Source: Candidatus Sulfopaludibacter sp. SbA3 (GTDB lineage Bacteria; Acidobacteriota; Vicinamibacteria; Vicinamibacterales; UBA2999). Taken from it: DNA of 64,000 nt. The translations under genes were made by a program, and so were the position numbers. The stretch is from positions 75,664 to 139,663 of the forward strand of contig CAMDNQ010000009.1 in assembly GCA_945903265.1 (NCBI GenBank), given 5' to 3'. Position 1 is the stretch's first letter. The number at the start of each line of letters is the position of its first letter. Under the pieces are notes generated by a model, which worked only from the letters and a program-made list of their open reading frames with translations, was not told where the DNA came from and ran no database searches. Below are positions 34,143 to 61,221 of the stretch, piece by piece.

Positions 34143-35732
34143 CTATTTTGTGGATCCGGTCGAGCCACGCATGGCCCCCAGCCGGCGAAGCACGAAGCGC
34201 TTGGGATTACCCAGCAGGCGCATCCTCCACTGCAGATAACCCTTGCGCGCGCCGCTGCGCAGATGCTTCCAGCCGACGGGTGTGCGCTCCGACAGATCCG
34301 TCCACGCCAGGGCGGCGTACAACGGCAGCCGCAGCGCAACCTCTGCGAGCGTGGCGCGCTCCGGCGTGGGCGCCGGCGATGCAAGCACCTGCTCGATGAC
34401 GCCCACGAACCGCGGGGTCGCGGGATGCTCCTCGCCGAACGGGAGGACGAAGCTGCGGGCAAATGCGCGCGACCGCGGATCGCTGACGCCTTCCGGTACC
34501 AGGGAGTCGGCCAGCATCCGCACGTGCTCATCGAACGACCGCGCCACGTAGAGCAGGTCCGCGGCCAGGTAGCGGAAATGAATGGTGCCTTCCTGGCTGG
34601 CGGTTGAAATCTCGGGCAGAAGCACAGTGTGGCACGCGCGGCCGGCAACGGCGGCCTCGATAAACGCACTGGTCACGAGGCCGACCACCGCGCCGCTGTA
34701 ATACATCGACTCGTAGTAGTCGTCTTTCGACTGCTGGTCGATCGGGTGGTCGCCGAACAGCACGACCTGCGGGTATGCCGACAGGTCGATCGGCTCCCAC
34801 TCCTTGACCCGTGCCGGGTGGGGACGAATCAGAATGCCGATGTCTTTCAGCCGCGGGTCGCCGCTCGATCGGATCGCACGAATCCAGTCGAGCACAAACG
34901 TCGGCTCGTGGGTCGTCTTCCTGAGGAGGGACGAACATGCATACAGGACAAAGGGTCTGTCGGATCGTAGACCCACGCGCTCGCAAAAAGCCCCACGCGA
35001 GCGAGACGGCTGCCTGCTCCACCACTGGTCGTAGCACTGCGCGCCAGTGACCACGACGCGGTCGGCGGCGAGGCCATGCATCTCCACCGCTTCGGTCCGC
35101 TGGATCTCGTTCCAGACGATGACGGTGTCGGGAACGAACCGGAGAAGCGCCTTGGTCGAGAGGTGGTCCCAGCTGCACACCGGCAGCACCGTCCTCAAGC
35201 CGAGCGCCTTGGCCGCGCGCAAGTAGTCGATTTGCGGCGACCCCAGGTCGATGAGCGGCGTGATGAGCACCGCGTCGGGCTGCTGCGCGGCGATAAACCG
35301 CTCGAATGCCGGGACGCGCGGAATGGCCCGTTCGAGCGCACGAAGCGCGCGCGAGAGCCACCGGCGCCCCGCATCGCCGCGGAAGAGCCGCCGCTGAAGC
35401 AGTTCCAGGATGAGGCGAGGCGTGCGTTCCTCCGCCCGCACCCGCAGCTGCGGAGTGTCGGCATACCGGGGTTCGAGGTACCGCAGGTAGTCCACGCTCA
35501 GCCGAAGGCTTCGCGCCAGCTCGAACCATCGTCCTTTGGCGGCGGGCGCGGTGCCCATCGAGAGCTGTCCCGGGTAACGCGCGACGAGCCGCTCGATCAT
35601 CCCCTGGCCGCCGAGCGTTTCGCCGACGCTCACGACCATGTGCACGTGATGACCGCGCTGCGCGAGCGCCTCGAGCGCCGACTCGAAGTTGCGCAGGTAG
35701 GACCAGTGGCGGGCAAAAAACAGCAGCTTCAT
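34143..35732 (-). CDS. HP-family protein (copy 3), close duplicate of the N-terminal domain of 31476..34136
   Basis: 529 aa. 77 of the first 100 residues are identical to the neighbour (hand count). VCSWDHLSTKALL, ILIRPHPARVKEW, VVGLVTSAFIEAAVAGRAC. Confidence 0.82.
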   Translation of the reverse strand: MKLLFFARHWSYLRNFESALEALAQRGHHVHMVVSVGETLGGQGMIERLVARYPGQLSMGTAPAAKGRWFELARSLRLSVDYLRYLEPRYADTPQLRVRAEERTPRLILELLQRRLFRGDAGRRWLSRALRALERAIPRVPAFERFIAAQQPDAVLITPLIDLGSPQIDYLRAAKALGLRTVLPVCSWDHLSTKALLRFVPDTVIVWNEIQRTEAVEMHGLAADRVVVTGAQCYDQWWSRQPSRSRGAFCERVGLRSDRPFVLYACSSLLRKTTHEPTFVLDWIRAIRSSGDPRLKDIGILIRPHPARVKEWEPIDLSAYPQVVLFGDHPIDQQSKDDYYESMYYSGAVVGLVTSAFIEAAVAGRACHTVLLPEISTASQEGTIHFRYLAADLLYVARSFDEHVRMLADSLVPEGVSDPRSRAFARSFVLPFGEEHPATPRFVGVIEQVLASPAPTPERATLAEVALRLPLYAALAWTDLSERTPVGWKHLRSGARKGYLQWRMRLLGNPKRFVLRRLGAMRGSTGSTK

Positions 35733-43021: not shown

Positions 43022-44716
43022 CTATGACAGAGAGGGCTTTCGTCCAATGACGCGCAGGTTCTTCCCGTAGGCGCCAGCGTTGGCAAAGAACTGGAGCCGA
43101 TCGGCAATCGCCTCGACCCCCGCGTCATCCGCTCCGTGAACCTCCCGCCGGTACCAGAGGTAATCGACGATGTCGAGCCCTTCCGTGGCCACATACTCCG
43201 GCAGCAGTCCCTCGCGGCGCAGGAGATTTCTCATCGTGATCGGCGTGTAGTAGTTGAGGTGATGCGTCGGCCAGATGAAGTGCGCGTCGCGGCCCATCAG
43301 CAACCGGGACGCGGAGTCGTAATTGGGCACATACATGAACAGGATCCCGCCGGGCCGCAGCAGCCGGGTGCACGCCTGTACCGTGCGGACCGGTTCGAGC
43401 AGGTGTTCCAGGACGTCGAACAGGCAGACCGCGTCGAAACTCCCCGGTTCCAGCTCCGCGTCTTCGAGGGCGACGTCGCGCAGGTCGAGCCCACGGCTGC
43501 AACCAAACTCCACGGCCGACGGGTTCAGATCGAGCCCGACGGCGTCCCATCCGCGATCGCGCGCCGCTTCCACCACGAACCCCGTACTGCAGCCGACATC
43601 CAGCATCCGTGGGCGCGGGATAGGCAGGTGGCGCGCCATGATATCCACCCGTTCCCGGCCAAACCGCTCGACGCGATAGGCATGACTGCGGATCCCGAGG
43701 TCCCGGACGATGTCCTGGTACTCCGTTGACCGGTACACCTTCTTGTAATGGGATTCGTCGAACACCGGGCTCACATAGACGAGATCGCACGCCGTGCAGC
43801 GCACGATGCGCATGTGGTCCTTCTCGAGTTCCGGCGTCGCTTCCGCGCCGCCGCACGTCGGGCACCGCCGTGCGGACAGGAGATCGTCGGGAATCTTCCC
43901 GTGCACCCGCACAAGTTCGTCGATTGGATGCGTCCGCTTCTCGATCAGCTGCTTGTACGACCCGCCTGGCCGCAGCTGCGCCACATCGACCGGCTCGTAT
44001 TCATCCGGCCGCCTGTACGAAATCCGCAGGCGATCGTCGCCCAGCGTCCGCTCGATCAACCGCACATCGTCGGCGCTGTCGATATCGAGCGAGTCGGCCG
44101 CGCTCATGACGAACGGCCGGCAGTCATCGCCGTACAGCGACCCGCGCTCCAGCACTTCCGCACGAACCGCGAGCACCGCCGGACCGTTGCGGGCATACAC
44201 GCGCGGCTTGTCCTGGCGGCGGGTCGGGAGCGGACTCTCCGAGTACGGGCGCAGCCGATCGCCGTCAAGCCGCATCACGGATGCCGGTGAGAACTGGTGC
44301 GGCACTTCCACGACGCTGACGACCGAATCGGCCTTGCTGCTCTCGAGCAGTTCTATCGCCCGGTCGATGTGTTCGGCCCGCCGCAGCGGCGAGGTCGGCT
44401 GGAGGAGCACGATGACGTCTGCCGCGGTTCCCTGCCGCTTCAGCTCCGCCACCGCATGCTGCAACACCGCTAGCATGGGAGCCTCGTCGCCCGCGAGATC
44501 GGGCGGACGGAGAAATGGGACGTCCAGACCGAGCCCGCGCGCCGAGTCCGCGATTGCGGGATCGTCCGTGCTCACAATTACGCGCGTCAGCCGCCGGCTC
44601 GCCAGCGCTGCCGACGCGGTGTAGGCAAGGAGAGGACGGCCCGCGACCGTGATCAGGTTCTTGCGCGGAATGCCCTTGGATCCGCCCCGGGCGGGAACGA
44701 CACCAATGACGTTCAT
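43022..44716 (-). CDS. bifunctional fusion: CMP-nonulosonate synthetase (N-terminal) + zinc-ribbon class I SAM methyltransferase (C-terminal)
   Basis: N-terminal VIGVVPARGGSKGIPRKNLITVAGRPLLAYT, LLQPTSPLR. Middle RCPTCGG...CTACDLVYVSPVF. C-terminal MLDVGCSTGFVVEAA, FDAVCLFDVLEHL. The same two modules are separate adjacent genes at 24875..26499. Confidence 0.85.
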   Translation of the reverse strand: MNVIGVVPARGGSKGIPRKNLITVAGRPLLAYTASAALASRRLTRVIVSTDDPAIADSARGLGLDVPFLRPPDLAGDEAPMLAVLQHAVAELKRQGTAADVIVLLQPTSPLRRAEHIDRAIELLESSKADSVVSVVEVPHQFSPASVMRLDGDRLRPYSESPLPTRRQDKPRVYARNGPAVLAVRAEVLERGSLYGDDCRPFVMSAADSLDIDSADDVRLIERTLGDDRLRISYRRPDEYEPVDVAQLRPGGSYKQLIEKRTHPIDELVRVHGKIPDDLLSARRCPTCGGAEATPELEKDHMRIVRCTACDLVYVSPVFDESHYKKVYRSTEYQDIVRDLGIRSHAYRVERFGRERVDIMARHLPIPRPRMLDVGCSTGFVVEAARDRGWDAVGLDLNPSAVEFGCSRGLDLRDVALEDAELEPGSFDAVCLFDVLEHLLEPVRTVQACTRLLRPGGILFMYVPNYDSASRLLMGRDAHFIWPTHHLNYYTPITMRNLLRREGLLPEYVATEGLDIVDYLWYRREVHGADDAGVEAIADRLQFFANAGAYGKNLRVIGRKPSLS

Positions 44717-45882
44717 ACAGCCGCCGGCGTGAAGACGAGCCGCTTCTGCGCTTTCAGGGGCACGCGGGCCAGCAGGTCGGCGATTCGATCACCGGCTTCG
44801 CCATCTCCGTAGAGCGGATTTGAGGGATAGCGCCCGTGCGCCACCTGTTTGGCGATCGCCTCGGCGATCTCACGCCGGTCATAGCCGACGTCGATCACGT
44901 TGGCGCCGCGATCCCGGCCTTCCTGCCGGGTGCCGATATTGACGGCCGGCGCGCCGAGAAACGCGCCCTCCCTGATAGGCGCGCTCGAATTGCCGACGAC
45001 GCAGGAGCACGACAGCATCAGGCGCACGTAGGTGTCGATCGGGAAGTTCTTGTAGAAGCGCACGTACGTCGGTTGGCGCTTCTCACGGAACGTGCGCATG
45101 CCGCTCGAAATGTCTTCCGATCCGGCATCGACGTTGGGCCACAGCATGATCGTCGGCATCTTCAGATCATCGAGCGCCAGCAGCGTCTCCCAGATCTGCT
45201 CTTTCCCGTGTCCGTACTCCGTGGTTACGGGGTGCTGGTTCACGAGCAGGAAGGGCTGCGTCGGGTCGATGTGCGCGCCGACGCCTTCGCGCGTCAGCCA
45301 CTCGGCGTGCGGCATGGCGTCGGTGCTCCGCGCGATCTCCGCGACGAGGTCGATGCGGGGACAGCCGACGACATGCACCGTGTTGGGATGTTCGCCCATG
45401 CGGACGATGCGATCGCCTGCGGCCGCATTGGCGGGAAAATGAATGTGGGACATCTTCGTCACCGCATGACGAATGCTCTCGTCGATCGTGCCGCTGATCT
45501 CCCCTCCCATCGTGTGCGCGACTGGAATGTTCATGTACGCGGCCGCAATTGCGGTCGCCATCGTTTCAAATCGATCGCCGACGCTGACGACCACATCCGG
45601 TTTGAGGAGCTCGAAGATGGTGGGCAGTTCCAGCAGCCCGAGGCCGGTCGATTTCGCCATGGTCGCGGGCGTCTCCCCTTCGACGATCATGGTGACGCGG
45701 GCTGATGGCGTGAACCCGTCGGACTCGATCAGATCGACGACCGCTCCGAAGCGGTCGAGGAGCGCTGACGCGCCCACGACAAGCTGGAGCTCCAGGGACG
45801 GGTGCGCCTTGACCGCGCGCATCACGGACTTGATGCTGCTGTAGTTGGCGCGAGAGCCGATGAAGATGCAGATTTTTCGCAC
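44713..45882 (-). CDS. neuC: UDP-N-acetylglucosamine 2-epimerase, hydrolysing type (NeuC family), second copy
   Basis: ICIFIGSRANYSSIKSVM, DRFETMATAIAAAYMNIPVAHTMGGEISGTIDESIRHAVTKMSHIH, GNSSAPIREGAFLGAPAVNIGTRQ. Confidence 0.9.
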   Translation of the reverse strand: MRKICIFIGSRANYSSIKSVMRAVKAHPSLELQLVVGASALLDRFGAVVDLIESDGFTPSARVTMIVEGETPATMAKSTGLGLLELPTIFELLKPDVVVSVGDRFETMATAIAAAYMNIPVAHTMGGEISGTIDESIRHAVTKMSHIHFPANAAAGDRIVRMGEHPNTVHVVGCPRIDLVAEIARSTDAMPHAEWLTREGVGAHIDPTQPFLLVNQHPVTTEYGHGKEQIWETLLALDDLKMPTIMLWPNVDAGSEDISSGMRTFREKRQPTYVRFYKNFPIDTYVRLMLSCSCVVGNSSAPIREGAFLGAPAVNIGTRQEGRDRGANVIDVGYDRREIAEAIAKQVAHGRYPSNPLYGDGEAGDRIADLLARVPLKAQKRLVFTPAAV

Positions 45883-45906: not shown

Positions 45907-48900
45907 TTAACGGCCTTCTCCACCCGGTTTCGCGGGCCGCTGCAGCACGACCGTCGCGACGTAATAGCGTGCGAGCCTGAGGCTGCGCATCACATGGCGA
46001 GGCACTTTGCGGAGATCCCGGCCGGCCGCGCGCGCGACACGCGAGGTGCGGCGGCCGAGCCCACGGCCGAGCCTGCGTCCGGCGGCGCGGACGGCCTGCC
46101 CCAGGCCGGTGCCGGATGGCTCAGGCGCGCCGGGCGCCGGCGTCCCGAGCCAGAGCATCGCCGCCAGCGGCCAGAACAGCACGCGCAGCACACGCGACGT
46201 GCCCCGTTCGCGCTCCTCGGATGCGGCGCCCTGTAGCGCGAGCTGCTGAATCGCATCCGCAAGAATCGGCGTACACGGTCTGCTGACGCCGTGCGGCCGG
46301 AGGAAGGACCCCACGAACCGCTCCGTCTCGCTGCGCACGAGCGCCGGATCGCGCAGCACCGTGACGAGCTGTTCGAGATGGTCCGGGAGTGAATTGGCGA
46401 CCCTGACAAATCCGCCGTTTTCCGGACGCAGGTAGCGGAAATGGAGCGTCCCGTCCTGGGTACCGGCGAATGTCGGCGACAGCAGCGACAGCACCGGCTT
46501 GCCGAGAATCGCGGCCTCAATCATCGCACTGGTGTTGATGCCGACGACGGCCTGGCAGTAGGAGAGCGAATCGAACAGCGTGGCGCGCGCATCCTCCGCC
46601 ACCGGCGTGTACCGCGCCCTGGGCCAGATCGCGACGGCGCCGAGATCCGACAAATCGGCGGTCGTCCATGCCACCGGGTTGAACGGGTGCGGCCGCACGA
46701 GAATGGCGGCCTCGCGGAGCAGCGGATCGCTGCTGGCCCGCATGCCTTCGATCCACTCGCGCACGAACGGGACCTCGTACTCCGAGCGTGCGATGAAGAC
46801 CGACGATCCGGTAAACAGCACAAACGGGCGGTCGTCCGGCAGGCCGACCATCCGGCAGAAGTCGCTCCGGCTCTGGCTCGGCTGACGCTCGAACCAGTGA
46901 TCGAACGGCTGGGCGCCGGTGACGACGACGCGATCGGGTTTCACGCCGTGCAGCTCGACGGCCTCGAGCTTCTGCCGCTCGTTCCACACGGCGACCGCGT
47001 CGGGCTCGACGCGGATGTGACCCTTGTTCGTGAGATTGTCCCAGCTCGCGATGGCCGCCATCACGGGAATGCCCGCTGCCCTGGCGGCACGAACCGCATC
47101 CACCTGGTCCGACGCGGCGTCAATCAACGGCGACACCACGAGCACGTCGGGCGCCTGGCTGTCGAGGAACTGCGCCATTGACGCACTGACGGGCACCGCG
47201 CGCTCGCAGGCCTGCAGGCCTCGAATCAGTCGATTCACGCGTGACGGCCGCATCGACCGGATTCGATTGAGAAGGCCGAGCCATGACGGCAGCACCTTGC
47301 GATACATCCGGTTCCGGAGCACCGGCGCATCGGCGTACCGCGGATCGAGATACCGGACAAAATCCATCGTTCCGCGAATCGCGCGCGCCAGCGGCATCCA
47401 GACGTCCTGCCGCTCCGGCACCACCCCCGCGATCTCGATCCGGTCGTCGTCGATCAAATCGAGCCGGGCGTGCTTCCGCTCCCGCAACGAATTGACCGCC
47501 AGGACGACGCTGTGCCCCCGATCGGCGAGGAGCTTCATGGTGGAATCGTAGTACCGCAGGTATTCCGGAGACGCGACCGCGAACAGAATCCGCATCGAGG
47601 GCCCTGGCGCGGTGCGCGGGGTGCGCCGTGGGTCTCGCTGCTGCCGGAGCAGCACCGCCACACGAGCGCTCGCCGCCACCGGCCATAACGCCAGACGACG
47701 CACGGCCACTGACCACGTATCCGGCCGGCGCGAGACGGCTGGCGCCGCCGCGCACGCTTCGAGCGCGTCGACGACGCGCGGCGCGGCCGGAACATCCAGA
47801 CCATGCGGCCGCACGAAGGCTTCGACAAACGCGCGGCTCTTCGACGGGTCGTAGGAACCATTGAGCGTCCTGGAGAGCTGATCCAGGTGCTCGTCCATCG
47901 CGCGGCCGACCTGCAGGAGTCCGCCATTGACCGTCTTCAGATGCTGAAAGTGCAGTGTGCCTTCCTGCTGGCCGGCAAACTCGTCGGCGAGCAGCGTGAA
48001 GACGGGACGCCCGACGATGCCAGATTCGATGAGCGCGCTCGTGTTCACGCCGATGACCGCAGCGCTGTAGAACATGGAATCGAAATACTCGGCCCGCGCG
48101 TTCGGGTCGAGCGGATTCGCGCCACCTCGCGGCCATATCGCGACGGCGTCAAGCGCTGTCGTGTCGACGTCACGCCATTGCCCCGCGTTCTGCGGATGCG
48201 GCCGGATCAGAATGGCGGCCCGCTGCAGCTCCGGGTCCGCGGCGCTCCGTACGGCGTGGATCCATCGGCGCACGAAGGCCACCTCGTGAGGCGTGATGAA
48301 CGGCGACGAGCAGAGGTACAGCAGCAGAGGACGGTCATCCGGAAGACCCGCGGTCCGGCAGAATTCGCTCCGCGACACGCTGGGCTGCGAGGTGAACCAC
48401 CGATCGTAGGCCTGCGCGCCCGTCACAATCACGCGCGACGGATCGATCCCGTGCAGTTCCGCCGCTTCGCGCCGCTGCATTTCGTTCCAGACCATCACGT
48501 GGTCTGGCGCTTCATGGATGAGGCCCTTGGTCGTCAGGTGATCCCAGCTTCCGACTCCGAGCACGGTCCGGATGCCGGCGGCCCGGGCGGCGCGTACGTA
48601 GTCCACCTGGGTGGATCCGAAATACAGAAGCGGTGTCAGGAGCAGGAGATCCGGCTGCTGGTCCCGCAGCAGACGCCGAGCGCCGTCGGCCGGCGGCATC
48701 GCGCGCTCCAGCCACGCCACCACGCCGCGCCAGATCCGCATCGCCGCGGAAGAGCCGACGAGAGGCCAGCGCGGCAGGCGGACGGCCAGCGCTGGCGCCT
48801 GACGCTCCGCGCGGGCCCGCAGGCTCGCCGCGTTGTCGAACCGGGGACCGAGATAGCGCCAGTAGTCGAGCGTCAGCCGCAGCGCCGACGCCAGGGGATG

Positions 48901-49107
48901 CCACGGCGAACTCCCGCGGGACGCATACGCGTGCGTGATCTGCGCTGGATAGTCACGCTCGAGCGCTTCGACGGTGCGCATCCCGCCGACGCTGTCCTGC
49001 CGGTCAGCGACCAGATGCACCCGGTGGCCGCGGTCGGCAAGCAGGCGGAGCGCCGGCTCGAAATTCCGCAGGAATCCAAAGCTGCCGAGACAGAAGAGCA
49101 ATTTCAT
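45907..49107 (-). CDS. tandem double HP-family protein (copies 6 and 7 in one 1066-aa chain)
   Basis: Domain 1: MKLLFCLGSFGFLRNFEPALRLLADRGHRVHL, VGSWDHLTTKGLI, ILIRPHPQNAGQW. Domain 2 begins at in-frame ATG 47595 (MRILFAVASPEYLRYYDSTMKLLADRGHSVVL): IASWDNLTNKGHI, ILVRPHPFNPVAW. No stop codon between the halves. Confidence 0.82.
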   Translation of the reverse strand: MKLLFCLGSFGFLRNFEPALRLLADRGHRVHLVADRQDSVGGMRTVEALERDYPAQITHAYASRGSSPWHPLASALRLTLDYWRYLGPRFDNAASLRARAERQAPALAVRLPRWPLVGSSAAMRIWRGVVAWLERAMPPADGARRLLRDQQPDLLLLTPLLYFGSTQVDYVRAARAAGIRTVLGVGSWDHLTTKGLIHEAPDHVMVWNEMQRREAAELHGIDPSRVIVTGAQAYDRWFTSQPSVSRSEFCRTAGLPDDRPLLLYLCSSPFITPHEVAFVRRWIHAVRSAADPELQRAAILIRPHPQNAGQWRDVDTTALDAVAIWPRGGANPLDPNARAEYFDSMFYSAAVIGVNTSALIESGIVGRPVFTLLADEFAGQQEGTLHFQHLKTVNGGLLQVGRAMDEHLDQLSRTLNGSYDPSKSRAFVEAFVRPHGLDVPAAPRVVDALEACAAAPAVSRRPDTWSVAVRRLALWPVAASARVAVLLRQQRDPRRTPRTAPGPSMRILFAVASPEYLRYYDSTMKLLADRGHSVVLAVNSLRERKHARLDLIDDDRIEIAGVVPERQDVWMPLARAIRGTMDFVRYLDPRYADAPVLRNRMYRKVLPSWLGLLNRIRSMRPSRVNRLIRGLQACERAVPVSASMAQFLDSQAPDVLVVSPLIDAASDQVDAVRAARAAGIPVMAAIASWDNLTNKGHIRVEPDAVAVWNERQKLEAVELHGVKPDRVVVTGAQPFDHWFERQPSQSRSDFCRMVGLPDDRPFVLFTGSSVFIARSEYEVPFVREWIEGMRASSDPLLREAAILVRPHPFNPVAWTTADLSDLGAVAIWPRARYTPVAEDARATLFDSLSYCQAVVGINTSAMIEAAILGKPVLSLLSPTFAGTQDGTLHFRYLRPENGGFVRVANSLPDHLEQLVTVLRDPALVRSETERFVGSFLRPHGVSRPCTPILADAIQQLALQGAASEERERGTSRVLRVLFWPLAAMLWLGTPAPGAPEPSGTGLGQAVRAAGRRLGRGLGRRTSRVARAAGRDLRKVPRHVMRSLRLARYYVATVVLQRPAKPGGEGR

Positions 49108-51455
49108 GACGCGCGGACCTTGACGGGCAGGCGAAGGCGCTTGAATCGCTTCGACCGTTCAGCCGTGACAGCCGCCCAGCCGCCGGTCGCGGCGGCGGCC
49201 TGCAGCCGCTCGATCTGGTCGATGGGAAGCCGCTCGCTGTGGTACGTCGTCGCGGGCGTCCCACAGAACGCCGCAAGGATCGCCATGTCCCCGTAGGCGC
49301 CGACGAACGCCGCGGCGCGCTCCAGCGCGTCCACGCGGTCGGCCAGCGGCAGCCGGTCGAGGCTGACCACATCGCCGGCCGCCGAGGCGTGTCCGGCGAG
49401 TTCGGTCAGAAACTGTCGATGCTCCTCGGTGTCAGGCAGCGCAGCGGTGCATTCGCCGCTCACGGCCACGCCCGACCGCACTGCGGACGCCTGAGGCGCC
49501 GCAGAGGGCGCCGCGGAAAGCGCCTCGTACTTCAGGATCTCCGCGAAACGCGCCAGCTCGCCATCAGCCTGCAGACGGCGGAACGTCCGGAACAGCAGAA
49601 ACGGATGCAGCACCTGCGGTTCTGACAGATCGAACGCGCGCGCCGCGCGCTCGACGATGTCCGCATCGAACGGCGACATCACCGCCTGCTTTGGATCCTG
49701 CTCACTCTGAGGGACGGTGCGCCGTGCCCACTGCGCACCCTCGGAGTCTGAAAACAGCGTGGCGGTGTCCAGGAACCGGTGGGCAATCGACCCGTACCAG
49801 TCACGCTGGCCGCCGTGCGACAACACCACCAGCCGCTCGGGCGGAATGGCATACGCCGCAACCACCCAGCGCACGAACGGAATCCAGTACAGCAGCTCCA
49901 GCCCAATCGAGTCGACCCAGGGGCCGACAAACACCATGGCGGTTCCCTGCTGCACTTCTTCGAGCGCCGTCCTGACAGGCCGCAGTGAGAGTGACGTGCC
50001 GATGACCGTCGAATCGGCCGCGAGCTTCTGCGATCCGCCGCGCCGCCGCAGCCACAGGTACAGTCCGCGACGAAGAGGCGCATAGACCGGCGTGGATGCC
50101 TGCGGACGCTTGCGAACATCGGCGGCCGCCCGTTCGATTTCGGCGGCGAGGAGCGGAGCCACTGGCCGGTCGATGCCGTGCGGCCGCAGGAACTGCCCGG
50201 CAAATGTCCGGCTGCGCGCGGCGCAGATCGGATCCTGCCCGAGGAGCGGCACGAGCTGCCGGTGATGCTCCGGAAAGTCATGCGCCACGGACGCGAGCCC
50301 ACCGTAGGCCTCGACGAGGTAATGAAAGTGCATCGTGCCAGTCTGGCCTTCGTCGAAGCCGGGCATCACGAGCGTGTGCACCGGCCGGCCCACGATGGCG
50401 GCCTCGAGCATGGCGCTCGTGTTGAGACCGACAGCGGCGTGCGCGTGATGGATCGAATCGAACAACTCCTGGTCTCCGCCCCGGCTGGCATCCAGCGACA
50501 GCGCCACATTACCCAGATCGGAGAGGTCGACCGACGTCCATGAATTCCGCACCGCCGGGTGCGGCCGCACCAGAATCCCGCAGGACCGAAGGCGGCTGTC
50601 GTCCGCACGGCGGATTGATTCCGCCCAGCGCCGGACGAGTTCCATTTCGTTGGGCCCGGTCAACTGGGACGACCCGAGGTACAGCACCATGGGCGTCTGC
50701 GCATTCAGCCCGAACGATTCGAGAAATTCCGTTCGGTTGGTCGAGGGCGTTCGCGAGAAGAAATCGTCGAACCGGGCGGCGCCCGTGACCGCCACGATCT
50801 CCGGGGGGCAGCCGTGGAGTTCGATCGCCTCCTGCCGCTGGATGTCGTTCCAGACCAGGACGCGGTCCGGGAGAATGCGCATCAAGCCCTTGTTCGTGAG
50901 GTTGTCCCAGCTGAATGGCACAAAGACCACAGGGATGCCGAGCTTGTGCGCGGCCTTCACGTAATCGGTTTGATACGACTCGAACGTGACGAGCGGCGTC
51001 ACCAGGATCAGGTCGGGGCGTTCTTCGCGAAGAAACGCCTCGAACGCGGCGTCCACCGGGATGAGGTCCTCGCAGAACGCCAGCGCGCGTCCCAGGAGCC
51101 CTGGATGACGCTTGATCCACGCGTGGCGCTCGCAGAAGAGCGCGAACTCGGTCGGCGCAATTTCGTATGCGCGGCGGACCAGCCGTGTCGCCTGCGCGTA
51201 GCGGGGAGCGAAATACCTGGCGTAGTCGCGAGCGCCTCGCAGCAGATCGACGAACTCGCGCCATTCGTCCGCACGCTGCGTCGGATTGACCCGGCCGGAA
51301 ATCCGTTCGTGCGCGACCGCCGACGGCAGTTCGAAGCTGCCCTTCCTGAGCCGGCCGGCGAGGCGAATGTCATGCCCGCGATCGGCGAGCAGCATGAGCG
51401 TGTCGCGAAAGTTGCGAATGCGGCTCGTCGCGCCGAGGAGAAACAGGATCTTCAT
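49104..51455 (-). CDS. HP-family domain (copy 8) fused to a C-terminal LYW domain (copy 4)
   Basis: 783 aa. MKILFLLGATSRIRNFRDTLMLLADRGHDIRL, PFSWDNLTNKGLM, ILVRPHPAVRNSW, AVGLNTSAMLEAAIVGRPV. Then VFVGPWVDSIGLELLYWIPFVRW, VLHPFLLF, AAFVGAYGDMAILAAFCGT (LYW domain roughly 49104..49960). Confidence 0.8.
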   Translation of the reverse strand: MKILFLLGATSRIRNFRDTLMLLADRGHDIRLAGRLRKGSFELPSAVAHERISGRVNPTQRADEWREFVDLLRGARDYARYFAPRYAQATRLVRRAYEIAPTEFALFCERHAWIKRHPGLLGRALAFCEDLIPVDAAFEAFLREERPDLILVTPLVTFESYQTDYVKAAHKLGIPVVFVPFSWDNLTNKGLMRILPDRVLVWNDIQRQEAIELHGCPPEIVAVTGAARFDDFFSRTPSTNRTEFLESFGLNAQTPMVLYLGSSQLTGPNEMELVRRWAESIRRADDSRLRSCGILVRPHPAVRNSWTSVDLSDLGNVALSLDASRGGDQELFDSIHHAHAAVGLNTSAMLEAAIVGRPVHTLVMPGFDEGQTGTMHFHYLVEAYGGLASVAHDFPEHHRQLVPLLGQDPICAARSRTFAGQFLRPHGIDRPVAPLLAAEIERAAADVRKRPQASTPVYAPLRRGLYLWLRRRGGSQKLAADSTVIGTSLSLRPVRTALEEVQQGTAMVFVGPWVDSIGLELLYWIPFVRWVVAAYAIPPERLVVLSHGGQRDWYGSIAHRFLDTATLFSDSEGAQWARRTVPQSEQDPKQAVMSPFDADIVERAARAFDLSEPQVLHPFLLFRTFRRLQADGELARFAEILKYEALSAAPSAAPQASAVRSGVAVSGECTAALPDTEEHRQFLTELAGHASAAGDVVSLDRLPLADRVDALERAAAFVGAYGDMAILAAFCGTPATTYHSERLPIDQIERLQAAAATGGWAAVTAERSKRFKRLRLPVKVRAS

Positions 51456-54012: not shown

Positions 54013-54951
54013 TCACCTCGCTTGATCCGGCCGCTGCCGCCACACATACAATTTCTGGATCGTCATGCGCCAATCGGACTTCGGACGCTCGAGATCGCGC
54101 ACACACGACCACCAGAGCTGACTGCAGGCGTAGCGCAGCCCCGCGAGACGCCCGAATGCAGGCTGCCCTGCCCCCCGGATCGCAAAGTCCCACAGCAGCG
54201 TCGCGAAGTGCTGCACGTGGGCTGGCAGATAGACATACAGGGGCGCGCCGTTTGGGAAAAACACCTGCCGTTGCCGCCCGACGTCGAACACGCGCAGGAC
54301 CTCGCGATACCAGAGCACTTCCGGCAGCTGACGCACCTGCCCAAAGAGCGATAACGCCAGCAGCACCTGCCGGTCCGGTGTCGTCACGCGCCTGAAGACG
54401 CCCGCAGCATTCAGGGCCCGCACGCGTATCAGCCCGTAGATCATGTCGCCCGACAGCATGTAGCGCGCCGAGCGGCGCAGGCGTGCGGCCCGATTGCGCA
54501 TCCCGAACGTCTCGAAGGACTTGTCGGTCATGCGCCCATCGCCCGGCATCATGCGCATGTTCCTGACATACGCGAGCGCCACATCGGGGTGCGCGCCGAG
54601 AACCGCCACGAGCTCCTCCAGCCAGCGCGCGTGCCAGAGGTCATGGTCGCTGACCCACGCGAAATACTCGGCCCCGGGGTACTGCTGCGTGGCGCGCTCG
54701 AAGACGCGCCGCCAGTTGTCGACCATGCCGAGGCGCGTGTCGTTCGCCTCGTACCGCACCCGCCCGTCCTCGCGCGCATACGCTTCGGCAATCGACGTGG
54801 TCTCGGCGGATGGACGATCGTCCATGATGACCACTGCGAAATCGCGGTACGTCTGCGAGAGCAGCGATTCAAGTGCTCGCGCGAGCGTGTCCGGCCGGTT
54901 GTACGCCGGCAGTCCGAGCACCACGCGGGGCCCGGTCGCGCTGCCGGTCAT
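54013..54951 (-). CDS. family-2 glycosyltransferase (paralog of 51452..52336)
   Basis: ATG 54951 in an ATGA overlap. RVVLGLPAYNRPDTLARALESLLSQTYRDFAVVIMDDRPS, YFAWVSDHDLWHARWLE. Confidence 0.85.
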   Translation of the reverse strand: MTGSATGPRVVLGLPAYNRPDTLARALESLLSQTYRDFAVVIMDDRPSAETTSIAEAYAREDGRVRYEANDTRLGMVDNWRRVFERATQQYPGAEYFAWVSDHDLWHARWLEELVAVLGAHPDVALAYVRNMRMMPGDGRMTDKSFETFGMRNRAARLRRSARYMLSGDMIYGLIRVRALNAAGVFRRVTTPDRQVLLALSLFGQVRQLPEVLWYREVLRVFDVGRQRQVFFPNGAPLYVYLPAHVQHFATLLWDFAIRGAGQPAFGRLAGLRYACSQLWWSCVRDLERPKSDWRMTIQKLYVWRQRPDQAR

Positions 54952-57440
54952 ACGTGCAACCGCCGCCAGCCGAGGAAGTACGGCAGCGCGGCCGCCGAGT
55001 CCCGCGTCGTCAGGACAAGCCGTTTCGCCACGTAACCCGGAGACGACACCGGGTGCGGCCAGTAGAACCGTTCCAGGATTGTCTGCACACCGGATGAGGA
55101 GATGACATGCCGGCAGCCGAGAGCGTGCGCACTCCGCGCATGCAGGGTCGCTCGCTCGCTCGTCATGTCCGCGAGAGCCCCGCAATCCACTGTCAGGGCG
55201 AGCGCGGGAGGGTGCAGCTCGCCCGCGATCGATTCAGGCGCAAAGGCAAAGTCGACCGACTGCCAGTCATGCCAGAACGCGTCCGGCTGCTCCGCGTCGT
55301 AGACGCGGACCCGGGCGGCCGGAAACATCGCCGACAGATACACCGCCGACAGCAGCAGCTGCTCGGATGGTCCGGTCATCAGGTATGTGACGCCCGGGCA
55401 CAGCGTCTTGAAGTGAAACGCAAATCCGCCCCACCCCGCGCCAACCTCCCAGACCGTCTTCGGCGCGGCGGCCGTACGGAACTCGCCAAGCAGCGCCGCA
55501 TCCTGCAGCAGCGACAGCACACGGAAGTGCTGCAGCGTGTCCTCGTTGTACCGTTCGACACGGCCGTTGAACCCGAAGCCCCCGAGCACGGCCGGCTCGT
55601 CCACCCACAGCGTCGAGTCGCCTTTTTCGAGCAATAGACGCAGATGTCGATCGAGACGGTCCTTGAGCGGCGTGTTCGCCGGATCGTAATCACCCGCCCG
55701 TACACCCGTGATGGCCTCGCCACACTCGCGGAGCCGGACGACGGTATCCGGCGACGCCTCCCACAGCCCGGCGAGGGCGGTCCGCCGTTCCTGCTCCCGC
55801 GGCGTCAGCGCAGCGTCCGGCAGATCGGCTGCACGCAGGCCGCGCATGCCGTCGCGGATCCGGACGTACTGGGCGAAGACGGTATCGGCGGTTGCCTGCG
55901 TCCACACGGCATCCTCGTGCGTGCGCAGCTGTGCCGCCTTCTTCTTTCGCGCCTTGTCCTTCCGCTGCCGGAGCTGCTGGTCAACGGCGTCCGCTGATTG
56001 CTCCACCGCCGCGGCCGCGCCGGCGAGCGCCGGCCGGACAAGTGGGCTCCACCATGAGTTGCCGGCCGGCCTCCGTGTCCGAGCCGCAGCCTCGAGCGCC
56101 GCAACAAGCCTGGGCGCAGCCGGCTCGCCGATTCCATGCGGACGCACAAACGCCTCGACGAACCGCCGGCATGTCTCGCGATGCAGGGCGGGGTCCCGGA
56201 CCGATCGCTCGAGCTGCGCGACATGCTCCTCGAGACTCGATGCCACCTGCAGGACACCGTCCTTGGCGTTGCGCAGGTGGTGGAAGTGCAGCGTGCCGTC
56301 CTGGGTATCGCGGAACTCGGGGGCGTAGGCCGCGTGGACCGCACGCCCGACGATGGCACTCTCAATCTGGGCGCTGGTGTTCACGCCGACGACCGCCGCG
56401 CTGTGATAGATCGAGTCGTAATAGTCCGCCCGCGACTCTTCGTCCGCCGGGTTGGCTCCCTCTCGCGGCGAGATCGCGACGTTCCCGAGCGCGCTCAGGT
56501 CCGCGTCCCGCCAGGCGGCGGCATTCTGCGGGTGCGGACGCACCAGCACACCAGCGCCCCGAAGTATCTCGGATCGGTTTCGAATGTCCTCAATCCATGT
56601 CCGGACAAACGGCCCTTCGTCTGGCGCAATGAACCGTGAGGAGCAGAGATACAGGATGTACGGACGCCGCGGGTCCAGGCCGATGCGGGCGCAGAACGCG
56701 TCGCGATCGTCGCGTGGCGCCCAGCTGAACCAGTGGTCGTAGGCGACCGCGCCCGTGACCGCTACGCGGCTCGCCTGAACGCCGTGAAGTGTCGTGGCTT
56801 CGCGCTTCATCGGCTCGTTCCACACCGTCACCAGGTCGAGGGCATCGTGGATGAGCCCCTTGTTCGTGAGGTTGTCCCAGCTGTAGACGGACAGTGCGGT
56901 CGGAATGCCGAGCGACCGCGCCGCGCGCAGGTATTCGGACTGCGGCGACCCCGGCTCGACGAGCGGCGTGACGACCACGAGGTCGGGCCGCTGGTCGCGC
57001 ACGAACGCGGCAATCGCCTTATCCACCGGTACCGCACGATTGGCAATCCCAAGGAGCCGCGCGAGCATCGAACGACCGGCGGGCGTCGGCACCAGCCGCT
57101 GCCAGAATCCGGCTGATGCGAACAGCGGCATCTTCAGTTCCGCGCGGAGCCGCAGCTTCGGGGCGTTCCGGTATTCCGGCCGGAAGTATCGGAGATAGTC
57201 GAGCCCCTTGCGCAGCTCGATACCGAATCCGACCCACCGTGCCGACGCCGGGGCCGGCGGGCGTCCCTGCGTGAGACCGGGGTACTCGCGGCACAGACGT
57301 CCCAGCAGATCGGTGGGATCGAGATGCTCGTGCGTCTCCGCCACGATGTGCACCTGATGCCCGCGATCGGCCAGCAGCCGCAGCGTCGACTCGAAGTTCC
57401 GCGCGTAGATGTTGCTGCGCATGAAAAACAGGACGCGCAC
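54948..57440 (-). CDS. HP-family domain (copy 9) fused to a C-terminal SAM-methyltransferase-like domain
   Basis: GTG 57440 (VRVLFFMRSNIYARNFESTLRLLADRGHQVHI), 11 nt after the upstream TAG. VYSWDNLTNKGLI, VLVRPHPQNAAAW, VVGVNTSAQIESAIVGRAV. Basic linker QLRQRKDKARKKKAAQLR. C-terminal VWEVGAGWGGFAFHFKTLCPGVTYLMTGP (roughly 54948..55916) is homologous to 52333..53277. Confidence 0.8.
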   Translation of the reverse strand: MRVLFFMRSNIYARNFESTLRLLADRGHQVHIVAETHEHLDPTDLLGRLCREYPGLTQGRPPAPASARWVGFGIELRKGLDYLRYFRPEYRNAPKLRLRAELKMPLFASAGFWQRLVPTPAGRSMLARLLGIANRAVPVDKAIAAFVRDQRPDLVVVTPLVEPGSPQSEYLRAARSLGIPTALSVYSWDNLTNKGLIHDALDLVTVWNEPMKREATTLHGVQASRVAVTGAVAYDHWFSWAPRDDRDAFCARIGLDPRRPYILYLCSSRFIAPDEGPFVRTWIEDIRNRSEILRGAGVLVRPHPQNAAAWRDADLSALGNVAISPREGANPADEESRADYYDSIYHSAAVVGVNTSAQIESAIVGRAVHAAYAPEFRDTQDGTLHFHHLRNAKDGVLQVASSLEEHVAQLERSVRDPALHRETCRRFVEAFVRPHGIGEPAAPRLVAALEAAARTRRPAGNSWWSPLVRPALAGAAAAVEQSADAVDQQLRQRKDKARKKKAAQLRTHEDAVWTQATADTVFAQYVRIRDGMRGLRAADLPDAALTPREQERRTALAGLWEASPDTVVRLRECGEAITGVRAGDYDPANTPLKDRLDRHLRLLLEKGDSTLWVDEPAVLGGFGFNGRVERYNEDTLQHFRVLSLLQDAALLGEFRTAAAPKTVWEVGAGWGGFAFHFKTLCPGVTYLMTGPSEQLLLSAVYLSAMFPAARVRVYDAEQPDAFWHDWQSVDFAFAPESIAGELHPPALALTVDCGALADMTSERATLHARSAHALGCRHVISSSGVQTILERFYWPHPVSSPGYVAKRLVLTTRDSAAALPYFLGWRRLHV

Positions 57441-57451
57441 CGGTGTGCTCG

Positions 57452-59950
57452 CTATCGTGGAGGGGCCTCGGAGGACGTGACCGGCCCCTCGCCGCCCCGC
57501 ACGAAGAGTCCGTACCACACGACGTGCTCGCCCGACTTGCTCCTGACGCTCACCTTGGATTCAAGGCGGAGCCCGTGGCCTTCCAGCACGTCGCCCACGG
57601 CCGTTGAGAGCGCCGTCGACACTTCCACGAGCATCGTTCGCAGCTCGGGCGACGCGATCGCGCGGGATGCGCCGTCGAGCACCTCGAGTTCTCCGCCGTC
57701 GACGTCGAGCTTGATGTGATTCGGCTGCGGCAGCCCGAAGCGCTCCATCAGGTCGTCGAGCCGGTACATCATCACCGGCTGCTGATAGAGCGTGGGCCCA
57801 TCCTCCGGGGGGTCATAGCCCAGCACATGACGCGCGGCCCCCGGCTCGAGGTCGCGGAGGCTGAACACGTTCATCGCGGTCGTGCCCGACAGCGCGACGG
57901 GCATCGGCGTGATCTGTGCGTCCAGCTTGTTGAGCGCGATGTTCGCGCAGAGCGACGCGATGCTGGCGTAGCTCGCCTCGAACGCGAAGACCCGGGCGCC
58001 GCCGCCCGGCTTCATCGCCGCCACCAGCGAGTAGGCGCCGATATTGGCGCCGATGTCGTACAGCACCTCGCCCGGGGCAATGCGCCGATGAATCCAGTCG
58101 ACGGTAAAGGGCTCCTTGTGGCACGCGCGCAGCCGGAACTCCTCGCCCTTCGTGTGCACGCGCATGTAAATGTCCGCGTGCTCGTACTCGAGGCGTCTCG
58201 GAGGCGTGGCCGCGTGCAGCTCGATGAACGAGCTCGGCGGAAAGTGCTCCATCATCGAACTGAGCACCGTTCGCCGCCGCACCTCCCCCAGCGACTGGAA
58301 TGTCGATAACAGCAATTCCGTCTTCTGGTTCGCGTTGAGCCGCTCCTCAGGCCTGGCGGTTCGCGCGGCGTCTTCGACTCTGGCTTGCTCCGCCTGGCGG
58401 GCCTGCTGCGCCGCCACACGCGCCTTCCGTTTGGCTTGCCGCGCCGCCTTGGCGGCCTGCCGGGCGGCCTTCGCCTTGGCCGCCTTCTCCGTCTCGTGCG
58501 CGAGGATCGCCGCGCGTCCGGCGAGGCGCGACCTCAGGAGAGGCGTCCACGGCGGCAGCCGCACATGGGGACGGGTACGGGCCAGTTGCTCCAGCGCGTC
58601 GGCGAGCCGCGGCGTGGCAGGCACGTCCAGTCCGTTCGGGCGCACAAACGCTTCGACGAAGCTCCGGCACCGCGCCGCAGCGGCCGACGGAGGCTCGGCC
58701 AGCGCGGCGTCGAGCTGCGTGAGGTGCTCCTCGAAATTGCGGGCGGCCGTCACCACGCCGCCGCTGACTCGCTGCAGGTGATGAAAGTGCAGCGTGCCTT
58801 CCTGCGTGTCGCGGAATTCAGGCGCCAGGATGGTGAACACCGGCCGTCCGACGATGGCGCTCTCGATCTCTCCGGTGGTATTGATGCCGACGACGGCGCT
58901 GCTGTGAAAGATCGAATCGAAGTAGTCGCTGCGGCTGCCGGCGTCGACAGGCGCGGCGCCGGCGCGCGGCCAGACCGCCACGGCGCCAGCCTCCTCCAGG
59001 CTCTCCTGTTCCCAGAGTTCGGCATTCTGCGGATGCGGCCGCACGAGGATGCCCGCCTCGCGCACACGATCGGACGATGAGCGCCGGATCTGCTCGACCC
59101 ACGTCCGGATGAATGGCGGCTCGTTCGGAGCAACGAACTTCGACGAGCAGAGATACAGCACGAACGGCCGGTCGGCCGGCAGGCCGGCGCGCGCGCAGAA
59201 CTCCCCGCGTGTCGTCCGGGGCCGCCAGTCGAACCAGTGATCGAACGCGGCAGCCCCTGTGACGGCCACCTGTCCGGCTGGTACGCCGTGCAGCTCCACA
59301 GCCTCGCGCTTCATCGCGTCGTTCCAGACGGTGACGAGATCCACCGGGCCGTGAATCAAGCCCTTATTGGTCAGGTTGTCCCAGCTGGCGACGCAGAGGG
59401 CGGCCGGAATCCCGCGCGCGCGCGCGGCCCGGACGAATTCGGCCTGCGGCGCCCCCGGCTCGATGAGCGGCGTGACCGCGAGTACATCGGGGCGGATGTC
59501 CGCCAGGTACGCGTCGATAACCGGGTCAATCGGAATCGCCAGGTCCTGCGCCCGCAACCAGGCGGCCAGTGCGCGGCGGCCTGCGGCGGTACGAGCCGTC
59601 CCGTGCGTTGTCCGATCGAGGACGTACTGCGGCGCTTCGCGCAGTGCCCGCTGCCGCAGCTTGGGGGCGTCGTCGTATTCCGGCGTCAGGTAACGCAGAT
59701 AGTCCAGACCGAGGCGCAACTGGCGGCCGAGCAGACCCCAGCCATCCCGCCGCATCGGCATCCGGCCGTGTGTGAAGTTCGGATACCGGGCCGCCAGCTG
59801 CCCGGCAATGTCCGCGGGGTCGAGCTGCGCGTACTTCACGGTGCCCTGAAACGCGAGATGCACGTGGTGGCCGCGGTCGCACAACATCCGGAGCGTCGAC
59901 TCGAAGTTGCGGACATATCCCGCGTGCCGCATGACGAACAGCAGTTTCAT
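57452..59950 (-). CDS. HP-family domain (copy 10) fused to a C-terminal FkbM-family methyltransferase
   Basis: ATG 59950 in an ATGA overlap (MKLLFVMRHAGYVRNFESTLRMLCDRGHHVHL). VASWDNLTNKGLI, ILVRPHPQNAELW, VVGINTTGEIESAIVGRPV. Ala/Lys/Arg/Gln linker EKAAKAKAARQAAKAARQAKRKARVAAQQARQAEQAR. FkbM motifs VLYDIGANIGAYSL, VFAFEAS, HIKLDVDGGELEVLDGA. Confidence 0.82.
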   Translation of the reverse strand: MKLLFVMRHAGYVRNFESTLRMLCDRGHHVHLAFQGTVKYAQLDPADIAGQLAARYPNFTHGRMPMRRDGWGLLGRQLRLGLDYLRYLTPEYDDAPKLRQRALREAPQYVLDRTTHGTARTAAGRRALAAWLRAQDLAIPIDPVIDAYLADIRPDVLAVTPLIEPGAPQAEFVRAARARGIPAALCVASWDNLTNKGLIHGPVDLVTVWNDAMKREAVELHGVPAGQVAVTGAAAFDHWFDWRPRTTRGEFCARAGLPADRPFVLYLCSSKFVAPNEPPFIRTWVEQIRRSSSDRVREAGILVRPHPQNAELWEQESLEEAGAVAVWPRAGAAPVDAGSRSDYFDSIFHSSAVVGINTTGEIESAIVGRPVFTILAPEFRDTQEGTLHFHHLQRVSGGVVTAARNFEEHLTQLDAALAEPPSAAAARCRSFVEAFVRPNGLDVPATPRLADALEQLARTRPHVRLPPWTPLLRSRLAGRAAILAHETEKAAKAKAARQAAKAARQAKRKARVAAQQARQAEQARVEDAARTARPEERLNANQKTELLLSTFQSLGEVRRRTVLSSMMEHFPPSSFIELHAATPPRRLEYEHADIYMRVHTKGEEFRLRACHKEPFTVDWIHRRIAPGEVLYDIGANIGAYSLVAAMKPGGGARVFAFEASYASIASLCANIALNKLDAQITPMPVALSGTTAMNVFSLRDLEPGAARHVLGYDPPEDGPTLYQQPVMMYRLDDLMERFGLPQPNHIKLDVDGGELEVLDGASRAIASPELRTMLVEVSTALSTAVGDVLEGHGLRLESKVSVRSKSGEHVVWYGLFVRGGEGPVTSSEAPPR

Positions 59951-61221
59951 TCGACGCTGAGCAGTCCGTGCGAGACGAGCTGATCGACCAGCGGATACAG
60001 ATCCCAGACGGGTACGCCGCACTCGTCGGCGATGTCGACGAGCGACCTGGTTCCGTCGGCCCACGTAATCAGATTCAGAATCAGCGGCACCTGCGCTTCC
60101 GGCGTGGAGAGCTGCGCATAAAGCCCACGCGGTCCGAGCTGGGGCTCCCCAAGCACGGTGACGCGCGGAAAGCAGTGCCGCTCGATTGTTTCGAGCGCGA
60201 GCCGCACGGCGTTGTAGCCGCCGTCGAGTCCCGCCGGCGTCACCACATTCGCGAGGTCGTCCATCGAGGTGTGGTACTCGGGATACCGGTCGAACTTCGA
60301 GCGCATCATGCACGCGACCGGCAGGTCGATCCCTGGCGCGCAGTACTGGCGCTCGTCGCTTCCCCGATCGGCCCACCGATACGTCACGAACCCCGCATCG
60401 ACCCATGTGAGGACGTGTCTGGCGACCCGATCGCTGAGCGTGCCCCCGTTGCGCGACGGCAGGTACGCATAGCCACGCTCATCACCGATGCACGACAGGT
60501 TGAATCCGGCGATCACATGCGCCTTCAGCCAGTCGAGGTTCCGGCTGAGATACGTGATGGACCCGATGGTCTCGGGAACAAAAACGATGCGGTAGGAGTA
60601 CTTTCGTGCGGGGAGCGAACGCAGCCACTTGGCGAGAAAGGTCGTGACCGTCGGACCCGACAGCTCGTTGTTGGCCATCGAGGGATGGCACACGTAGGTC
60701 GACAGAAACACTTCCTGCGACGTGGCGCCGGGAATCAGCACTTCGCCGTAGGTCAGCGCGCCGTCGAAGAGCTCCGAGTCGATCACGACCCGGTACATCC
60801 CCTGCTGCAGCTGGATGCGCTGATTGTGGGAGAGGCAGAAGCCCCATCGCTCCTGGTAATACGACGTGATGAATGGAACAGCGTCGGGGCGGTCCGGCAG
60901 CGAGTGCAGGTGGGCGTTCAGCTCCTCGAGCGACAGCGTGCGGTCGACCGGAGTGCTGTAGCCGACCACGTGCAGGTTGTTCACCGCGAAATCACAGATG
61001 CGCCGGCCGTCGGGGGTCACGATGTAGGCCGCGCGAATCTTCCACTCACGGGGCACGACCCAGTCGAAGGCCCGCGTTCCCGTCGGCACCTCGTGCACCG
61101 TCAGCTCAGGCAGGTGCAGCCGCTGGATGATGCGAAGCGTCTCGCGCACGCCGTCGCCCGTGATGCTCCGATTGAGCGGCCACAGCGTCTGGGCGAGGCG
61201 GTGAATCTCCTCGCCGATCAC
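59947..61221 (-). CDS. aminopeptidase-like DUF2172/DUF4910-type protein associated with polysaccharide loci
   Basis: MIGEEIHRLAQTLWPLNRSITGDGVRETLRIIQ...LTVHEVPTGTRAFDWVVPREWKIRAAYI matches my recollection of the DUF4910 / aminopeptidase-like family N-terminus. The C-terminal end looks winged-helix-like. Confidence 0.7.
   Translation of the reverse strand: MIGEEIHRLAQTLWPLNRSITGDGVRETLRIIQRLHLPELTVHEVPTGTRAFDWVVPREWKIRAAYIVTPDGRRICDFAVNNLHVVGYSTPVDRTLSLEELNAHLHSLPDRPDAVPFITSYYQERWGFCLSHNQRIQLQQGMYRVVIDSELFDGALTYGEVLIPGATSQEVFLSTYVCHPSMANNELSGPTVTTFLAKWLRSLPARKYSYRIVFVPETIGSITYLSRNLDWLKAHVIAGFNLSCIGDERGYAYLPSRNGGTLSDRVARHVLTWVDAGFVTYRWADRGSDERQYCAPGIDLPVACMMRSKFDRYPEYHTSMDDLANVVTPAGLDGGYNAVRLALETIERHCFPRVTVLGEPQLGPRGLYAQLSTPEAQVPLILNLITWADGTRSLVDIADECGVPVWDLYPLVDQLVSHGLLSVE

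Follow-up and report, generated by a model that had tools for sequence, protein, structure and literature searches.

A two-module GT-B-like protein encoded in a nonulosonic acid operon of Candidatus Sulfopaludibacter sp. SbA3

A 64,000-nucleotide stretch of the assembly of the soil acidobacterium Candidatus Sulfopaludibacter sp. SbA3 (GCA_945903265.1, contig CAMDNQ010000009.1, positions 75,664 to 139,663, forward strand; hereafter the window) was analyzed, with a focus on a single minus-strand gene (45907..49107) encoding a protein of 1066 amino acids (aa), P0001. Two complete modules of one family, each with a GT-B-like glycosyltransferase (GT) fold in the predicted structure, are joined in this chain. 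The fusion appears, from comparison of sequences, to be fixed in a large clade of Vicinamibacterales. The two modules derive from coupled N and C genes, and the one polypeptide would most likely perform two consecutive transfers of nonulosonic acids activated with cytidine monophosphate (CMP), to different acceptors.

Architecture and integrity of the fused gene

The open reading frame (ORF) begins at an ATG and contains zero internal stops (ORF list and translation). A domain hidden Markov model (HMM), built from the paralogues of the window, matched P0001 in two complete copies at residues 1-466 and 505-971, as the sequence-only reading of this DNA had proposed. Module N, of the 'N-type' lineage, occupies 47710..49107 (minus; N-type clade support 99-100), and Module C, of the 'C-type' lineage, occupies 46195..47595 (minus) and falls in a clade with stand-alone C-type genes. 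The pairwise alignment called for in that reading ran end to end between residues 1-504 and 505-1066 (45% identity, 486 columns, E = 5e-126). All four motifs that it quoted were located. In Module N these were VGSWDHLTTKG at residue 185 (48523..48555, minus; S187, W188, D189 and K194, invariant in 112 domains) and ILIRPHPQNAGQW at residue 299 (48175..48213, minus; R302, P303, H304 and P305, the 'HP' motif), and in Module C IASWDNLTNKG at residue 686 (47020..47052, minus; S688, W689, D690 and K695) and ILVRPHPFNPVAW at residue 802 (46666..46704, minus; R805, P806, H807 and P808).

The modules are separated by a 38-aa region (47596..47709, minus), delimited from the per-residue confidence (pLDDT) of an AlphaFold2 (AF2) model and from the tails of split-gene products, and consisting of a post-module helix (aa 465-491, net charge +5) and a disordered linker (aa 492-504; pLDDT below 50 at residues 492-501). 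Helix and linker varied among orthologues (entropy 2.18), as did the C-terminal tail (45907..46194, minus; aa 972-1066 plus stop). This tail comprises a hydrophobic helix (969-988) followed by an Arg-rich amphipathic region, with a net charge of +15, and was disordered in the AF2 model. Both modules are followed by a basic, hydrophobic helix. No transmembrane segment was predicted in P0001, and the tail is a putative peripheral membrane anchor.

The second module starts at residue 505, encoded by a minus-strand ATG with its first base at 47595, reading MRILFAVASPEYLRYYDS. The sequence-only reading placed this in-frame ATG correctly, with no intervening stop, but the codon itself proved incidental: residue 505 was Met in only 2 of 80 fused orthologues and Leu in 59. 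A conserved internal start was therefore ruled out, and the fusion is a true single chain. An alternative is that an assembly or sequencing error, such as an indel in the linker, hides a stop between what are really two genes; split versions do occur in a minority of relatives, and the window derives from a metagenome-type assembly of 45 contigs. Against this, the same uninterrupted fusion was present in >117 independent protein clusters (1025-1120 aa, 57-91% identity, approximately 99% coverage), a lower bound from a word-seeded search in which all clusters came from Acidobacteria/Vicinamibacterales metagenome bins, and the closest relative was 91% identical across 100% of the length. When 151 genomes of the order were searched in six frames, the fusion was recovered without stops in three genomes of the same family (G132, G020 and G001) and one of another family (G076), giving 5 genomes with the source genome included, and linker length was constant (37-38 aa) in the clusters and in these other genomes. 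An artefact of this kind is extremely improbable, and the hidden stop or frameshift of which the sequence-only reading had warned was not encountered.

Ancestry of the two modules

The sequence-only reading had asked if the two halves are nearest relatives of one another or were paired long ago, and the trees and an approximately unbiased (AU) test decided for ancient pairing. In a tree of 112 domains, all N halves formed one clade (support 99) and all C halves another (support 100), with other paralogues between them, and this separation persisted after domains from ten related genomes were added. The AU test on a careful 33-row tree rejected a clade of N plus C (delta log likelihood 120, P = 1.7e-5). 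Module N shared 48% identity with the window paralogue at 54948-57518 vs. 45% with its own partner. Recent internal duplication of one module was ruled out by the trees and the AU test. The analysis was able to detect such an event, since the two modules of P0251 (1006 aa, representative library) were recovered as sisters, indicating a recent internal duplication, unlike the window protein. The N-type and C-type modules are old, distinct paralogue lineages in an ancient pairing.

Split versions at homologous loci, which had been anticipated, were found at four loci (L019, L021, L002 and G050/L009) as adjacent separate genes, N then C, with a 4-nucleotide (nt) ATGA/GTGA overlap; the L019 pair lies on a 239-kb contig of an NCBI bin. 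The start of the split C gene aligned with residue 505 of the fusion and the tail of the split N protein aligned with the linker, and the 38-aa region is what was once the C-terminal tail of an N-type protein encoded by its own gene. Families f10, f11 and f16 of the order also contained stand-alone C-type genes. Two genes stand between the N and C genes in L022, and the N gene of L020 has no adjacent C gene. The main fused clade was monophyletic, and the fusions of G076 and G001 grouped with the split G050 pair.

In relatives the two types thus stand side by side and translationally coupled, N ahead of C. Once the ATGA/GTGA stop-start junction was lost, the tail of the N protein became the 38-aa linker and the fusion arose.

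Multi-module proteins numbered 20 among the 148 best family representatives, and 15 of the 20 had their last module in the C-type superclade (support 95) and their first module elsewhere. As the last modules of these 15 divergent tandem proteins were C-type, the 'X-C' pairing appears old and recurrent. Three complete modules were present in one chain in P0241 (1546 aa, representative library). A 1406-aa gene on the L020 scaffold (L020:6522-9509; European Nucleotide Archive (ENA), 1.3 Mb) had two modules most like those of window genes 34143-35732 and 31476-34136; it is a second, independent kind of neighbour fusion, and its counterparts are separate adjacent paralogues in the window. Two apparent cases of split single-domain matches were set aside. 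The C-type gene that follows the N gene on an ENA contig (L001:7526-8764) has a second frameshift inside its module (after ...NTSAMIE), which gives it an error-prone or pseudogenised look; it is a pseudogene or reflects a long-read indel error, and it was not counted as a split pair. P0122-P0125 and similar matches were contig-end fragments rather than split genes.

Fold, catalytic integrity and proposed function

Both halves kept 84 of 84 positions at columns conserved in ≥95% of the 112 domains. These included S187/W188/D189/K194, V-W-N, E214, H219, T-G, D235, R-P-H-P, N-T-S, E361, Q381, H386 and H407, with the Module C counterparts at +501 to +503, and the R-P-H-P motif (H304, H807) was present in 111 of the 112 domains. 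Orthologue conservation was equal for the two halves (majority fraction 0.77 for Module N vs. 0.76 for Module C, n = 80). Loss of catalytic residues from one half, which the sequence-only reading had named as a possible failing, was not seen, and both modules are apparently catalytically competent. Of the positions conserved in both types, 111 carried an identical residue and 38 differed in residue between N and C; the type-specific ones were enriched in the first Rossmann subdomain (aa 1-69; 9/15; 32% identity) and beside the SWD and HP motifs, while the donor half was 51-60% identical. Acceptor choice in GT-B enzymes, explicitly in KpsC, is made by the N-terminal half (PMC10148158), so a similar donor half and a divergent N-terminal half suggest a similar donor class and different acceptors.

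The AF2 model of P0001 contained two GT-B units (mean pLDDT 87.3; predicted template modelling score (pTM) 0.56). The order of secondary structure was that of GT-B enzymes, with two Rossmann-like domains, an inter-domain cleft and a C-terminal helix crossing back; the module N-domain had 7 strands and a four-helix insert at 70-150. Foldseek gave 225 matches in the PDB (E ≤ 0.001); the ones listed were all GT-B enzymes, led by uridine diphosphate N-acetylglucosamine (UDP-GlcNAc) 2-epimerases and followed by MshA, GT1 enzymes and TagF. On this model the family fold is a generic GT-B, and glycosyl transfer activity is predicted. The Pfam scan gave no model for the module, just sub-threshold GT4 and Epimerase_2 matches, and PDB sequence searches with P0001 and with a 27-sequence module profile gave nothing relevant. 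NF046086, the BFO_1060 family, was matched by all ten window modules (E = 1e-5 to 8e-12), at 24.7 bits for Module N, 35.3 bits for Module C and 55 bits for the whole protein, all below its cut-off. An exhaustive profile search with 50% clustering sized the family at 7,353 representatives (E ≤ 1e-3), of which 2,202 reached E ≤ 1e-30. This family of approximately 7,350 representatives, without a Pfam or curated model, is labelled here the uncharacterised 'SWD..K / RPHP / NTS..E' family.

In the mechanism we propose, the C-terminal Rossmann half of each module (RPHP His, NTS loop, Glu361/864) would bind a CMP-activated nonulosonic acid supplied by the surrounding NeuB/NeuC/NeuA-type genes, and the more divergent N-terminal half of each would select a different acceptor. 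Two different, consecutive transfers would then be made onto a lipid-linked glycan at the cytoplasmic membrane face, where the basic amphipathic tail would hold the enzyme. The fused enzyme would act at one point along a series of about ten such paralogues. We infer the CMP donors from gene context.

A number of observations weigh against this account. The trees were mostly 'quick' searches, and the grouping of the G076 and G001 fusions with the split G050 pair means that the history involved either two or more fusions, or one fusion with later fissions. The orientation of the modules relative to each other is uncertain in the AF2 model (pTM 0.56), and the best structural matches were epimerases rather than transferases. 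The NF046086 scores (25-45 bits vs. a curated cut-off of 200) covered profile positions 40-175 only, and sub-cut-off matches were also obtained in the control genomes of B. subtilis, Synechococcus and Lactococcus. The link may reflect only the general TagB/TagF-like superfamily and, given the matches in these three unrelated genomes, was treated as a superfamily-level link only. The co-occurrence test with NeuB (below) is weak, NeuB being common in the order.

Other activities were weighed against consecutive transfers. E. coli O9a WbdA, like similar O-antigen polymerases with tandem GTs, has two GT-B modules of one family in one chain that form different linkages, with a methyltransferase-containing terminator alongside; its modules are GT4 mannosyltransferases using guanosine diphosphate (GDP)-mannose, in pathways dependent on ATP-binding cassette (ABC) transporters. 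By analogy with WbdA and KpsC, the modules of P0001 could alternate processively as a co-polymerase and make a long polymer in which the linkages alternate or the repeat comprises two sugars (two nonulosonic acids), much as the sequence-only reading had suggested. Paralogues fused to FkbM-type or other methyltransferases occur in the same operon, and these resemble proteins that terminate chains in ABC-transporter-dependent pathways. The N-C pairing is of ancient date and persists throughout the deep diversity of the family, ABC_tran and ABC2_membrane genes lie directly upstream of the split N gene in the L002 relative, and dual intact modules with a basic C-terminal tail are found as in KpsC (PMC10148158). 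However, the operon holds eight further family modules plus GT2, GT4 and PF05159-like transferases, more than a two-linkage polymer needs, which points instead to stepwise assembly of a complex glycan. Moreover, N and C are two genes apart in L022, N lacks an adjacent C in L020, and no ABC transporter was seen beside the source-genome cluster before the contig end. With so many paralogous transferases and with loci in which N and C are not adjacent, polymerization is less likely than stepwise transfers; it is possible, but we do not favour it and give it perhaps a minor share of the probability. A bolder version is more doubtful still. It casts the N-C tandem as the central heteropolymerase of a new GT family, unrelated in sequence to GT38, GT52, GT80, GT97, GT107 and GT118, that processively makes a poly-nonulosonic-acid chain with alternating linkages or alternating sugars of the legionaminic acid (Leg) or pseudaminic acid (Pse) type; the 'X-C' pairing would be the minimal polymerase unit, and the other paralogues would prime the chain, branch it and, where coupled to a methyltransferase, terminate it.

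Tandem GTs commonly include pseudo-enzyme modules, and the uncertain inter-module geometry of the AF2 model would also accommodate a protein in which one module is catalytic and the other is a degenerate scaffold or acceptor-binding module. With the family-conserved positions complete in both halves and the halves equally conserved among the 80 orthologues, this arrangement is very unlikely. Somewhat less remote, although improbable, is a TagF/TagB-like phosphotransferase, transferring alditol- or sugar-phosphate from a cytidine diphosphate (CDP)- or CMP-donor into a teichoic-acid-like phosphodiester polymer. TagF (3l7j, 3l7l) was among the structural matches, one beta-strand in the donor half is followed by a conserved His-Pro, a distant paralogue at 62021-64000 matched PF04464 weakly (19.5 bits, below the 22.1 cut-off), and NF046086 has been described as TagB-like (PMC5420450). 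P0001 itself had no PF04464 match at E ≤ 1, TagF ranked just 37th structurally with a template modelling (TM) score of 0.49, and the neighbouring genes are overwhelmingly those of nonulosonic acid synthesis and CMP activation, all of which argues against this reading. TagF/TagB (PF04464; PDB 3l7i-3l7l) shares with P0001 a GT-B-like fold, a cytidine-nucleotide donor, peripheral membrane location and a catalytic or phosphate-binding His after a donor-half strand, the donor and location being predicted for P0001.

Comparison with characterized systems

In KpsC and its GT107 relatives, a conserved His (HP) protonates the CMP leaving group. [quoted passage not shown] P0001 likewise joins two paralogous GT modules from a single family in one polypeptide. 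In KpsC each of the two is catalytic, and motif conservation suggests the same for P0001. The N-terminal alpha/beta half determines acceptor and linkage specificity in KpsC, and Modules N and C differ most in this half. A conserved His-Pro lies in the donor half of the P0001 modules, where the His would play a comparable role; the C-terminal membrane-association region of KpsC has a possible equivalent in the +15 amphipathic tail, and a CMP-ulosonic acid would be the donor in both. P0001 differs in having no PF05159 match (Pfam scan, E ≤ 1) and no QXXXD motif: its sole Q...D, Q745SRSD, is not shared by Module N, and the family invariants are Q167-x-[D/E]169 and SWD189. In the AF2 model the N-terminal Rossmann domain looks full-size, with a helical insert, rather than reduced, KpsC and WbbB fell outside the Foldseek top 50, and the P0001 modules represent two old lineages, each of which is also encoded elsewhere by genes of its own. 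An hhalign comparison between the module profile and the PF05159-like gene at 5542-7362 (probability 2%) led, at its sensitivity, to rejection of homology to the KpsC/KpsS family. The KpsC-like architecture put forward in the sequence-only reading therefore stands as a design (two modules, motif sets, basic tail) and is not supported as homology (no PF05159, no QXXXD, no top-50 structure); it represents convergence of architecture and not membership.

The Tannerella transferases of Pse and Leg derivatives, BFO_1060 and its allele Tanf_01245, were established by knock-out (PMC5420450). NF046086, which represents Tannerella forsythia Tanf_01245 / TFUB4_00887 / BFO_1060, was the only curated model matched by all ten window modules. 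These enzymes resemble P0001 in being GT-B/TagB-like, in the HP motif and in being encoded beside nonulosonic acid biosynthesis genes, and differ in having a single module of approximately 445 aa where P0001 has two. The D/E-D/E-G and DXD motifs described there are missing from P0001. According to Freiberger 2007, as cited in PMC5420450, the bacterial sialyltransferase motif set combines D/E-D/E-G with HP; [DE][DE]G was found nowhere in P0001, although HP is present. The NeuC/WecB 2-epimerases (PF02350; PDB 5xvs, 1f6d) gave the best structural matches (E = 5e-9, TM to target 0.64-0.69), together with a weak PF02350 match of P0001 (E = 0.011). Identity was 13-15%, genuine NeuC-type genes (PF02350 at 1e-69) are separate in the operon, and ten epimerase paralogues would have no obvious role.

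Operon context and significance

The gene lies in a long minus-strand operon (window GC 67%). Upstream is a divergent paralogue with an extra C-terminal region (49104..51455, minus; 783 aa), whose TGA overlaps the ATG of the fused gene (ATGA). A NeuC-type UDP-GlcNAc 2-epimerase (44713..45882, minus; PF02350, 1.8e-69) starts 24 nt after the fused-gene stop, and a CMP-nonulosonate-synthetase-type cytidylyltransferase fused to a methyltransferase (43022..44716, minus; PF02348) is a candidate supplier of the activated donor. The window contains ten close modules in nine genes plus the distant truncated one at 62021-64000; 2 NeuB, 2 NeuC-type epimerases and 3 PF02348 cytidylyltransferases (one fused to a methyltransferase); DegT aminotransferases, dehydratases, a formyltransferase, a deacetylase and several methyltransferases; and GT2 and GT4 enzymes, a WecA-type initiating transferase and the PF05159-like gene. 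The initiating enzyme is likely the polyprenyl-phosphate N-acetylhexosamine (HexNAc)-1-P transferase (PF00953) fused to CoA_binding_3 (3738-5537, minus), implying a lipid-linked glycan. The 606-aa PF05159 gene (5542-7362, minus; Capsule_synth, KpsC/KpsS family, 24 bits, cut-off 20, around an 'RVHP' motif) is another, distinct candidate for a transferase of ulosonic acids within this operon. Paralogous modules in 57452-60406 and 54948-57518 (minus), fused to an FkbM-type (PF05050) methyltransferase and another methyltransferase domain, could be chain-terminating or modifying enzymes. A DUF4910/DUF2172/HTH_47 protein (59947-61221, minus) adjoins an aminoglycoside 3-N-acetyltransferase-like gene (61218-62141, minus; PF02522) within the glycan operon.

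Past the window end (L027, G000:C9:139664-145775), the operon continues with one more NeuB (the third), a dioxygenase of the PhyH type and a HisF/HisH-like pair, which may be an amidotransferase for acetamidino groups; no ABC transporter or Wzx/Wzy was seen beside the cluster as far as the contig end, 6 kb past the window. Two more module copies lie outside the main cluster on contig C42 of the source genome (G000:C42:2360-3715, plus, and 6665-8095, minus). In the Logan contig of L002 (L002:1934-5988), ABC_tran, ABC2_membrane, a PIG-L deacetylase and a sulfotransferase are directly upstream of the split N gene, which hints at an ABC-transporter-dependent pathway and a sulfated glycan. Among the 151 genomes of the order, 10 carried the family, each with 4 to 10 or more copies, and NeuB occurred in 10/10 of these vs. 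68/151 overall (Fisher P = 2.3e-4).

To our knowledge, only a small number of enzymes that transfer bacterial nonulosonic acids (Pse, Leg and relatives) have been described, and the fused protein, compact and with two predicted activities, is a convenient starting point for biochemistry. Tandem architecture is a known principle, and the advance is moderate in that respect; the natural split and fused forms are ready constructs for asking why GT modules fuse. The design of KpsC, two paralogous modules for what are presumably CMP-sugars plus a membrane tail, would have arisen independently in a soil phylum, and the operon hints at unusually complex acidic surface polymers in Acidobacteriota.

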